Shown here one piece after another: positions 22,852 through 24,033 of a stretch of 64,000 nt of DNA. Under the pieces are notes generated by a model. That model was not told the DNA's origin and searched no databases. It saw only the letters and a program-made list of their open reading frames with translations. Source of the stretch: Edaphocola flava (GTDB lineage Bacteria > Bacteroidota > Bacteroidia > Chitinophagales > Chitinophagaceae); assembly GCF_004118155.1 (NCBI RefSeq), contig NZ_SAIQ01000002.1:460487-524486 (forward strand), in the 5' to 3' direction. A program made the position numbers and the translations under genes. How positions within the stretch are numbered: the stretch's first letter is position 1; every line of letters starts with the position of its first letter.

Positions 22852-23271
22852 TTATCTTATGGCATATTGCCATACACCCGATACCTCCAGTATTTCGAGT
22901 CCCGGCTGTTGCTCGCCGTAACCGAATATACATATATGTGGCGTGTTGCATTTATGGCAATCGGTACCGAAATATAAGGTAGGCAGGTCGCGTACGGTCA
23001 GTGCGCCTACATGCAGCATGCTCTGATGGGTATGTTGCAGGGCCTTATGTTCCAGCAGTTCCTCTTGCTTCAGCCTGGGCATAGTGCCGTCATAAAGACT
23101 TAAAATCGGGAATCCGCTTTCGTAAGGCGTAATCAACAATGGATTGGCTTCTCCGCATTGGGTACAGTGAAACTGCGTCCAGGCAGATGGCCTTGTTTCT
23201 TCGTTGCGGAATTCCTTTTTATCCACTGCAGCCGCTTTCAGCAGGCGTATGGTATGGTCTATTCTGTACAT
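22852..23271 (-). CDS. Small cysteine-rich hypothetical protein immediately downstream of the TNT-like gene; candidate immunity/partner protein
   Basis: 139 aa, 3-bp gap to the upstream gene on the same strand, no signal peptide. CxxC...CxxC(x5)C cysteines suggest a zinc ribbon. Confidence 0.45.
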   Translation of the reverse strand: MYRIDHTIRLLKAAAVDKKEFRNEETRPSAWTQFHCTQCGEANPLLITPYESGFPILSLYDGTMPRLKQEELLEHKALQHTHQSMLHVGALTVRDLPTLYFGTDCHKCNTPHICIFGYGEQQPGLEILEVSGVWQYAIR

Positions 23272-23274
23272 AAC

Positions 23275-24033
23275 TTATGGAATTATGGTTCCTGCAATAT
23301 TAGGATATTTCCCGCTGGGAGATTGCTTTATAATTACTTTTATATATCCCTCCTTAGCCAGCTGGTTCCATGTTTTTGGATAGCCACTGGCCGGGTCTAC
23401 CGGTATCTTCCACATAGTTTGTTTACCATTGCCGGCTTGTCCGAACCAGGGAATGATATCTGCGGTCTGTCCTTTAAATGGCAGATCTTTCAGCACTTCA
23501 ATCTCATAATAGAAATCGTATGTATTTTCTGGCTGGTTCAGCGCTCTTTGGGTAAATGTATAGCTCTGTCCGTTGATCAGCGGACTGGTAAAGCTGCCAC
23601 CAAGGGTAGGTGTACCCGTTCCGGCATAATTACCTACTGCAGCGCTGTAACGGTCAAATTTCATTCCGGCTTTAAGCGGTACATCGTCTACAATGTTGTA
23701 GCCACCGTTAGCCGGAGGCCAGCCACCATTCCAGCTGTTGGCTTTAAAGAGCGCTTCCAGCTCGTTCCACATTTGCTGGTTGTACAGGTCAAAAGCCGCC
23801 TGGCGTTGCTCAGCGTTCAGTGCACCGTTACGGTCAAAGGTAGCGGCAAACGCATCGGCATTCTTAAAGAATGGCGCCACGGCCGGTTTTTCAATATCCG
23901 TAAGGTTGATGGCTGAGCCTACTGTAGCAGCAATAGCGAGCGCTGTGTTGTGTCGGGCCTGGCTGCCATAAAAGGAGAGCAGGCAGAGGAGGGTGCAGAG
24001 CATCGCCCTCATAGAATGTTGTAGTTTGTTCAT
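23275..24033 (-). CDS. Secreted protein with a TNT-like (tuberculosis-necrotizing-toxin-type NAD+ glycohydrolase) domain
   Basis: Signal peptide. C-terminal region contains DRYS..G.Y..GGSFTSP...FTQRALNQP...YDFYYEIEVLK...IIPWFGQAGNGKQ, resembling what I recall as conserved TNT-domain blocks (DRYG, QRALP, APWFGQPGGGxQ). This is recalled from memory, not searched. Confidence 0.45.
   Translation of the reverse strand: MNKLQHSMRAMLCTLLCLLSFYGSQARHNTALAIAATVGSAINLTDIEKPAVAPFFKNADAFAATFDRNGALNAEQRQAAFDLYNQQMWNELEALFKANSWNGGWPPANGGYNIVDDVPLKAGMKFDRYSAAVGNYAGTGTPTLGGSFTSPLINGQSYTFTQRALNQPENTYDFYYEIEVLKDLPFKGQTADIIPWFGQAGNGKQTMWKIPVDPASGYPKTWNQLAKEGYIKVIIKQSPSGKYPNIAGTIIP

Follow-up and report, generated by a model that had tools for sequence, protein, structure and literature searches.

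The locus described here raises the question of how a soil member of the Bacteroidota that exports an NADase of the TNT (tuberculosis necrotizing toxin) type is kept from intoxicating itself, and whether the small gene directly behind the NADase gene provides the protection. Pairs of an NADase toxin and its immunity protein are an established theme, represented by TNT-IFT, SPN-IFS, Tse6-Tsi6 and Tne2-Tni2. A 2024 survey found IFT in Actinomycetota only and traced most bacterial TNT domains to Actinomycetota, Bacillota and Proteobacteria; for the remaining phyla it proposed 'alternative strategies' as the guard against self-toxicity (PMC11187862). The DNA analyzed here, which we refer to as the window, is a stretch of 64,000 nucleotides from Edaphocola flava, in which an initial annotation, made from the letters of the sequence, had proposed a secreted TNT-like NAD+ glycohydrolase and an adjacent small zinc-ribbon protein as a possible toxin/immunity pair. 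Having followed up this proposal computationally, we consider it very probable that the two genes form a bicistronic cassette for a Sec-exported TNT-fold NADase and a cytoplasmic zinc-ribbon immunity protein.

The gene pair and its transcription unit

Both open reading frames were recovered on the minus strand exactly where the initial annotation had placed them, the gene for the 252-aa protein, a predicted exported TNT-fold NAD(P)+ glycohydrolase and the toxin of the pair, at 23275..24033, and the gene for the 139-aa zinc-ribbon protein, which is proposed to be its cognate immunity factor, at 22852..23271. The spacer between them is the described 3 nt (TAA gtt ATG), no terminator-like site was found on the minus strand between the two genes, and an intrinsic terminator with a 19-bp stem, a 4-nt loop and a T-run (22798..22839, minus strand) lies directly 3' of the 139-aa gene. 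Taken together, the short spacer and the single terminator after the second gene indicate one bicistronic unit, an operon that this terminator closes. The best-matching genome is that of Edaphocola aurantiacus H2 (Chitinophagaceae, Bacteroidota), whose small protein shares 99% identity with the window copy and whose TNT protein shares 94%. Comparing four Edaphocola-like copies at a dS of ~0.23-0.42, we obtained dN/dS values of 0.08-0.13 for the TNT gene and 0.01-0.10 for the small gene; purifying selection thus acts on both, which identifies the 139-aa ORF as a real gene. An antisense ORF of 252 aa (23158..23916, plus strand) was rejected as a gene, since it falls within the TNT gene and the conservation of TNT accounts for its own.

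The immediate neighbours of the pair (CorA, an SBBP/CHU_C type IX secretion substrate, a small GNAT, an FMN reductase and an ABC-F protein) are housekeeping or surface genes unrelated to it. Inspection of the nearby genes revealed no T6SS, T9SS-CTD, secretion-system, phage, transposon or other mobile-element context around the window pair.

The 252-aa protein as a member of the TNT family

The sequence blocks from which the TNT assignment had been made, DRYS, GGSFTSP, FTQRALNQP, YDFYYEIEVLK and IIPWFGQAGNGKQ, were all found in the translation, and the assignment itself was borne out by a Pfam scan in which the profile HMM of PF14021 (TNT) scored 34.5 bits (E=2.8e-8), above the gathering cutoff of 27. 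The match spans residues 120-232 (23338..23676, minus strand) and positions 2-86 of the 88 in the profile. In the AF2 model, most of the stretch of residues 55-252 has a pLDDT >90 and the protein has the three-dimensional fold of TNT/NADases. From the model, and from the P0279/P0280 comparison described below, the transferable toxin module can be delimited to residues 53-252 (23278..23877, minus strand), comprising a helical N-terminal part and the TNT catalytic core.

The nearest solved relatives of the protein are the fungal conidial surface NADases AfNADase (6YGE) and FoNADase1 (8R15). In a profile alignment, R128, Y129, F148, R163 and Q205 of the window protein correspond to R129, F130, F137, R148 and Q194 of AfNADase, and all five are invariant in an alignment of 39 homologues. 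The catalytic Arg and Gln that the initial annotation had recognized have counterparts in R129 and Q194, with the codon of R128 at 23650..23652 and that of Q205 at 23419..23421, both on the minus strand. The active-site Arg/aromatic/Gln set is present as R128/F148/Q205 and the nicotinamide-binding Arg (R148 in AfNADase) as R163, while compared to AfNADase the window family has 12 additional residues inserted after R128 and before F148. AfNADase is inactivated by R129A, Q194A and Q194K, and F137 is likewise essential by mutagenesis (PMC7955114). By this correspondence, the window enzyme would hydrolyse NAD(P)+ to nicotinamide and ADP-ribose, with R128, F148 and Q205 forming the active site and Y129 and R163 holding the nicotinamide. 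A TNT-like domain could in principle have another chemistry, acting as an ADP-ribosyltransferase on protein or nucleic acid, or be catalytically dead; the third catalytic residue is a Gln, which hydrolytic TNT enzymes share, and not the Glu of ADP-ribosyltransferases, and of the readings considered here we hold this one to be the most improbable. Since NCBI already names the TNT protein and its close homologues 'glycohydrolase toxin TNT-related protein', the enzyme half of the pair is not new.

Export signal and localization

The claim that the TNT protein is secreted stood in part. The window copy has a predicted type I signal peptide at residues 1-26 (MNKLQHSMRAMLCTLLCLLSFYGSQA|RH; 23956..24033, minus strand), assigned from sequence inspection, the AF2 model and family comparison; the model has a helix at residues 8-25, at low pLDDT, followed by disorder. 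The linker that follows (residues 27-52; 23878..23955, minus strand) is predicted to be disordered, with a pLDDT <50 at residues 23-43 and 48-51, and is poorly conserved, being gapped and variable in the homologue alignment. Most homologues are lipoproteins rather than plainly secreted proteins, and one is the tip of a polymorphic toxin. A lipobox Cys with an acidic stretch, in the pattern 'A-C-S-S-D-x-(D/E)-(D/E)', was found in 102 of 120 TNT homologues, a typical N-terminal signal reading '…FSVA-C-S-S-D-R-E-D-E…'. This acidic stretch resembles the Bacteroidota lipoprotein export signals (LES) SDDFE, SDDDD and CS(D/E)2, which drive surface exposure and packing into outer-membrane vesicles (OMVs) (PMC5080379, PMC6222051), whereas the signal of the window copy is plain and type-I-like, lacking both the lipobox and the acidic motif. 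With a lipobox and an LES-like acidic signal, the lipoprotein homologues, as in Chryseobacterium and Pedobacter, are probably exposed at the cell surface or carried on outer-membrane vesicles.

Such a placement would also suit a different biology for the same pair, in which the enzyme is a housekeeping ecto-NADase of the surface or periplasm, comparable to the NADases of fungal conidia, that breaks down NAD(P)+ from the environment to salvage nicotinamide and ADP-ribose or to remove a signal, and the small protein is a safety catch against premature activity in the cytoplasm. The 102 lipoproteins whose LES-like stretch would place them outside the cell (PMC5080379, PMC6222051) speak for such a role, as do the fungal surface enzymes as closest solved relatives, the stand-alone forms without translocation or carrier domain, and the housekeeping neighbourhood in the window. 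We keep it as the main rival of the toxin cassette and judge it unlikely in view of the polymorphic toxin loci described below. A third role, in anti-phage defence, was rejected, as neither protein matched PADLOC-DB (E<=1) and in view of the signal peptide and the lipoprotein forms.

The 139-aa protein as a zinc-ribbon partner

The small protein has five Cys, four of which (C36, C39, C105 and C108) are invariant among 34 homologues. In a broader alignment of 57 sequences, the conserved core consists of these four Cys, each at least 90% conserved, together with E120, Q122, G132 and W134, and the family has the further motifs PYESGFP, LPTLYFG and YGExQPGL. The first predicted zinc knuckle, C36-T-Q-C39 (23155..23166, minus strand), forms the turn between strands 30-35 and 42-47, and the second, C105-H-K-C108 (22948..22959, minus strand), the turn between strands 98-104 and 111-122. 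In the AF2 model, with a pLDDT of 94.7, both CxxC motifs thus sit at beta-hairpin turns. The modelled topology is that of a zinc ribbon, in agreement with the earlier description of a Cys-rich zinc-ribbon partner, and the protein would be expected to bind metal. Since neither a signal peptide nor any hydrophobic or transmembrane segment was found in it, the protein should be cytoplasmic, which is also in line with an immunity role.

A conserved function unrelated to the toxin, which the initial annotation had named as evidence against the pairing, did not come to light; searches of Pfam, NCBIfam and PADLOC were blank for the small protein, also at permissive thresholds. When 1.84 billion representative proteins were searched exhaustively with a profile, just 88 members were obtained at E<=1e-3, so that the family is a small one. 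A fold comparison with solved structures gave no relative among known immunity proteins, and no description of the 139-aa family was found in a literature search covering part of the journals. What is new in this system is the family of the partner and the occurrence of the toxin as a lipoprotein.

It could be argued that a zinc ribbon is better suited to a dedicated accessory factor, for example one that regulates transcription, assists export as a chaperone or activates the NADase. Zinc ribbons are common among nucleic-acid-binding and adaptor proteins, the lack of a fold match to known immunity proteins is in keeping with such a role, and, while all other sources label the small protein hypothetical, one homologue carries the automatic label 'RNA-binding Zn-ribbon (DUF1610)'. 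That identity is unsupported, as there was no Pfam match, DUF1610 included, at E<=10. We give an accessory role little credence, and the genetic contexts of the small gene, considered next, weigh further against it.

Linkage of the two genes across Bacteroidota

Co-occurrence with TNT-like genes in other genomes, the other point on which the pairing had been made to depend, turned out to be complete wherever it could be read. A search of species-representative genomes with the small protein as the query gave 33 loci, each of which has a TNT gene directly upstream and in the same orientation. These loci come from the orders Chitinophagales, Flavobacteriales, Sphingobacteriales and Cytophagales. 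The hosts are Edaphocola, many Chryseobacterium and Pedobacter, and MAGs of Cytophagales, Sphingobacteriaceae and Fluviicola. A metagenome scan gave a TNT gene upstream in 49 of 51 loci, the other two of which end at a contig edge exactly at the small gene. Leaving out these two, the adjacency holds in all 82 informative loci (33 from genomes and 49 from metagenomes) across four orders of Bacteroidota; the metagenome scan, which used the small-family alignment A2, gave close relatives alone and thus adds numbers and no new contexts.

When the flanking ORFs of the 33 genome loci and the window were clustered, the TNT gene and the small gene were the only two common to all 34 loci. Given that just these two genes are shared and that the flanks are lineage-specific, the pair behaves like a self-contained cassette. 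Across genera, the identity is ~45-54% for the small protein and 58-74% for the toxin module, so the small protein diverges faster, a further point in favour of an immunity role.

The converse comparison, starting from the toxin, gave a more varied picture of the partner. A Pfam-less gene lies directly downstream in all six TNT homologues that were sampled from across the family. In three of the six (L036, L037 and L039) it encodes a member of the small family of 138-141 aa, and in the other three, which are divergent TNT homologues (L034, on a Fulvitalea plasmid, L035 and L038), a partner of ~190 aa. The ~190-aa partners are homologous to one another (E=1e-25), and their match to the 139-aa family is marginal, with an hhalign probability of 59% and E=9e-5, colinear over both Cys knuckles. 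On this evidence they probably represent a divergent branch of the 139-aa family with an N-terminal extension, although the assignment is not secure. Moreover, the distant small-family members L093, L094 and L095 adjoin no recognisable TNT gene; the contexts of L093, L094 and L096 are shorter than 1.3 kb, and L095 has large Pfam-less neighbours with no match to the TNT HMM. Both the ~190-aa partners in three of the six homologues and these distant members without an adjoining TNT gene were counted against the cassette.

Polymorphic toxin loci and fusions to immunity domains

The TNT module was also found in a Cytophagales MAG (contig JAXLUW010000003.1), in which four paralogues of ~930 aa are encoded in tandem. 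In one of them, P0279, the TNT module makes up the C-terminal ~200 residues, starting with 'TNVFFKNVDEF', which matches 'APFFKNADAF' at about residue 53 of the window protein, and a zinc-ribbon gene of the small family comes directly after it. The paralogue P0280, encoded 9 kb upstream, is 99% identical to P0279 over residues 1-729 and has an entirely unrelated tip, and the gene after it is not a zinc-ribbon gene but one for Imm49. Behind the zinc-ribbon gene lies an orphan cassette consisting of a 155-aa ORF similar to the tip of P0280 (E=4e-8) and an Imm49 gene similar to that of P0280 (E=6e-17). P0282, a carrier from another sample with 51% identity, has a bacterial EndoU nuclease domain as its tip. 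Such a combination of carrier, tip and partner is what defines polymorphic toxin loci in the sense of Zhang et al. 2012. Here the zinc-ribbon gene takes the slot of the cognate immunity gene for the TNT tip, and the partner tracks the tip and not the carrier. Exchange of the C-terminal tip is accordingly a property of the family, as seen in P0279, P0280 and P0282, and not of the stand-alone copy in the window.

The small domain is also found away from the toxin. In P0231 it is fused to Imm43 (PF15570, 90.9 bits) and in P0205 to ankyrin repeats, in both cases at a locus without a TNT gene. Judging by their domain content, these stand-alone fusions fit the usual pattern of orphan or multi-immunity genes. 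Two hallmarks of polymorphic toxin systems, an immunity gene that lies directly downstream and tracks the tip, and immunity domains that are orphaned or fused, were therefore both found for the small family.

These loci bear on both of the alternatives raised above. A private safety catch for an ecto-NADase would not be expected to be kept as orphan or fused domains (Imm43, ankyrin) in genomes and loci that lack the enzyme, a pattern that suits defence against incoming toxin, and the occurrence of the identical module as a swappable tip within an array of toxin-immunity cassettes argues against a housekeeping enzyme. As for a regulator, chaperone or activator, the small gene fills the immunity slot where the paralogue P0280 has Imm49, its domain is fused to Imm43 and retained in orphan genes away from TNT, and the partner switches with the toxin tip rather than with the carrier.

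Comparison with known systems

Work by Meehl in 2005 and Kimoto in 2006 is said to have established that a producer of SPN requires the co-encoded cytoplasmic inhibitor IFS. The SPN-IFS pair of Streptococcus pyogenes, likewise an NADase with a Sec signal and a cytoplasmic inhibitor, is the best functional precedent for immunity to a Sec substrate and thus for the window pair. It differs in that SPN is not known to belong to PF14021, IFS is an unrelated helical protein and SPN is delivered via streptolysin O. Both SPN-IFS and TNT-IFT are presented in PMC11699363 and PMC11187862 as exported NADases that require a cytoplasmic immunity factor.

The initial annotation had likened the window pair to the TNT of M. 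tuberculosis and its immunity protein. Compared to CpnT-TNT/IFT (Rv3903c/Rv3902c; PDB 4QLP), the likeness holds for the TNT fold and ends at the partner, which is unrelated to IFT (chain A of 4QLP) in both sequence and fold; even for the enzyme, as noted above, the nearest solved relatives are fungal. The fungal NADases have no immunity factor and are homodimers stabilized by disulfides, glycans or Ca2+ (PMC7955114, PMC11187862). The window protein falls outside their subfamily, since its mature form contains no Cys and since, unlike the fungal enzymes, it is always accompanied by a partner gene.

Also among the closest known systems are the T6SS NADase effectors Tse6-Tsi6 and Tne2-Tni2, and Rhs1-CT-RhsI1. 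Within the Bacteroidetes, TNT is already among the C-terminal or downstream-encoded domains of the TANFOR polymorphic toxins (Jana, Salomon & Bosis 2020, PMC7073777), and that these toxins too bear TNT tips is a further point against a housekeeping ecto-NADase. Supplemental Data 1 of that study contains a TNT protein of 278 aa, followed 2 bp on by a 141-aa protein with no domain, the same gene arrangement as in the window; the partner was left there as an uncharacterised, putative immunity protein. The systems described here differ from the TANFOR toxins in that the P0279 carrier gave no TANFOR (TIGR02542) match and in that the window copy stands without any carrier.

A model for the cassette

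Considering these findings together, the toxin/immunity interpretation is favoured by the linkage in 82 of 82 informative loci, the position of the small gene in the immunity slot after P0279, and the fusion to Imm43, and none of the outcomes that the initial annotation had named as fatal to it came about. In the model that we find very probable, the small gene would be co-transcribed with the toxin gene and give rise to a signal-less zinc-ribbon protein of 16 kDa in the cytoplasm, where it would form a 1:1 complex with the NADase module and inhibit it. This would shield the NAD+ pool of the producer from enzyme that folds before it is exported. Whatever organism the toxin may be aimed at, the producer and its kin would also be shielded from the same toxin coming from neighbouring cells. 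Because a Sec substrate crosses the membrane unfolded, the need for immunity in this model rests on the analogy to SPN-IFS. That the window copy lacks a carrier, the lipobox and acidic signal, and any T6SS, T9SS-CTD or mobile context was likewise counted against the cassette.

A bolder version of this model would have the small protein found a structurally unprecedented family of zinc-ribbon immunity proteins for the TNT-type NADases of Bacteroidota, and the lipoproteins constitute an undescribed format of delivery, by the surface or OMVs and not by T6SS, T7SS or CDI. We put this forward tentatively, as a possibility that is on balance doubtful.

As the enzyme half had already been annotated, the gain is incremental and not conceptual. 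Nevertheless, the locus offers a candidate answer to the question of self-intoxication for the Bacteroidota, in the form of a compact zinc-ribbon protein that has no known fold relative and is strictly linked to the toxin. If this holds true, the small protein would represent a new scaffold for immunity to TNT-type NADases and for their inhibition, it would become possible to annotate ~90 clusters of 'hypothetical proteins', and the family would provide a marker for the traffic of TNT toxins in soil and rhizosphere Chryseobacterium, Pedobacter and Chitinophagaceae. Moreover, the existence of lipoprotein homologues that carry an acidic export signal raises the idea that NADase toxins in these bacteria may be borne on the cell surface or on vesicles.

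Partner genes and a possible toxin remnant in homologous loci

Three homologous loci in which the TNT gene is divergent carry a downstream partner gene of about 190 aa (L034:5119-5706, L035:4855-5433 and L038:3681-4265), one of them on a plasmid of Fulvitalea axinellae. The three products are mutually homologous and share the C-terminal motif CxxC…(F/Y)xCx(F/Y)RxG…EP, and their relation to the 139-aa zinc-ribbon family, the proposed immunity partner of the exported TNT-type NADase, is only marginal. The ~190-aa proteins behind divergent TNT genes form a second partner family.

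The 139-aa family also has members in other arrangements. In P0209, a metagenomic representative of 322 aa, the zinc-ribbon domain makes up residues 1-135 of a single polypeptide, and the C-terminus contains a degenerate TNT-like segment (AKVIPWFGMEGNGNKY) that scores 17.8 bits against PF14021, below the threshold, and in which the catalytic Gln position appears to have been lost. P0209 may be an immunity protein joined to a dead toxin remnant, or else a gene-call fusion. The distant member P0243 is encoded by the second gene downstream of a large, partial, Pfam-less protein of 875 aa (L095:2-2629), the C-terminus of which was not recognised by the TNT HMM at E<=1. The 153-aa gene lying between the two is assigned to PF27768 (UCP033725) in a precomputed table, and our own scan of it returned no hit. 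L095 may represent an immunity array downstream of an unrecognised toxin.

Open reading frames at and beside the TNT locus of the window

Opposite the TNT gene, an antisense ORF (window 23158..23916, + strand) encodes 252 aa, by coincidence exactly as many as the TNT gene does. Antisense ORFs, although shorter ones, are also seen opposite the TNT gene in relatives, but this recurrence merely reflects the conservation of the TNT gene itself, and we therefore rejected the ORF as a gene.

At window 19737..22681 (+), a type IX secretion system (T9SS) substrate gene is represented by two ORFs in different reading frames that overlap by 4 nt. The product of one, 243 aa long, carries a signal peptide as well as an SBBP repeat; that of the other has 738 aa and a CHU_C type IX secretion domain at its end. 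In E. aurantiacus H2 the orthologous region is one ORF of 969 aa, and the (AT)n tract at the junction (~20455-20468) is 2 bases longer in the window than in the close relatives L042 and L043, which together argue that the gene is split here, broken by a dinucleotide-repeat frameshift. The frameshift would have arisen by slipped-strand or phase variation, or else be an assembly error.

Probable polymorphic-toxin carriers

In the Cytophagales MAG contig JAXLUW010000003.1 (loci L097 and L018, ~800-824 kb), four paralogous proteins of ~930 aa are encoded in tandem, with N-terminal 729 residues that are near-identical and C-terminal tips that are swapped. One of the four carries a TNT tip, another has a restriction-endonuclease-like tip with Imm49 as its partner, and the tips of the other two are of no assigned type; orphan cassettes of a tip plus immunity lie in the array as well. 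The N-terminus of the carrier is signal-like, and the protein includes a hydrophobic region rich in glycine; scans against Pfam and NCBIfam, the latter for the known class TANFOR, found no domain in it. These ~930-aa proteins look like an undescribed class of polymorphic-toxin carriers in Bacteroidota.
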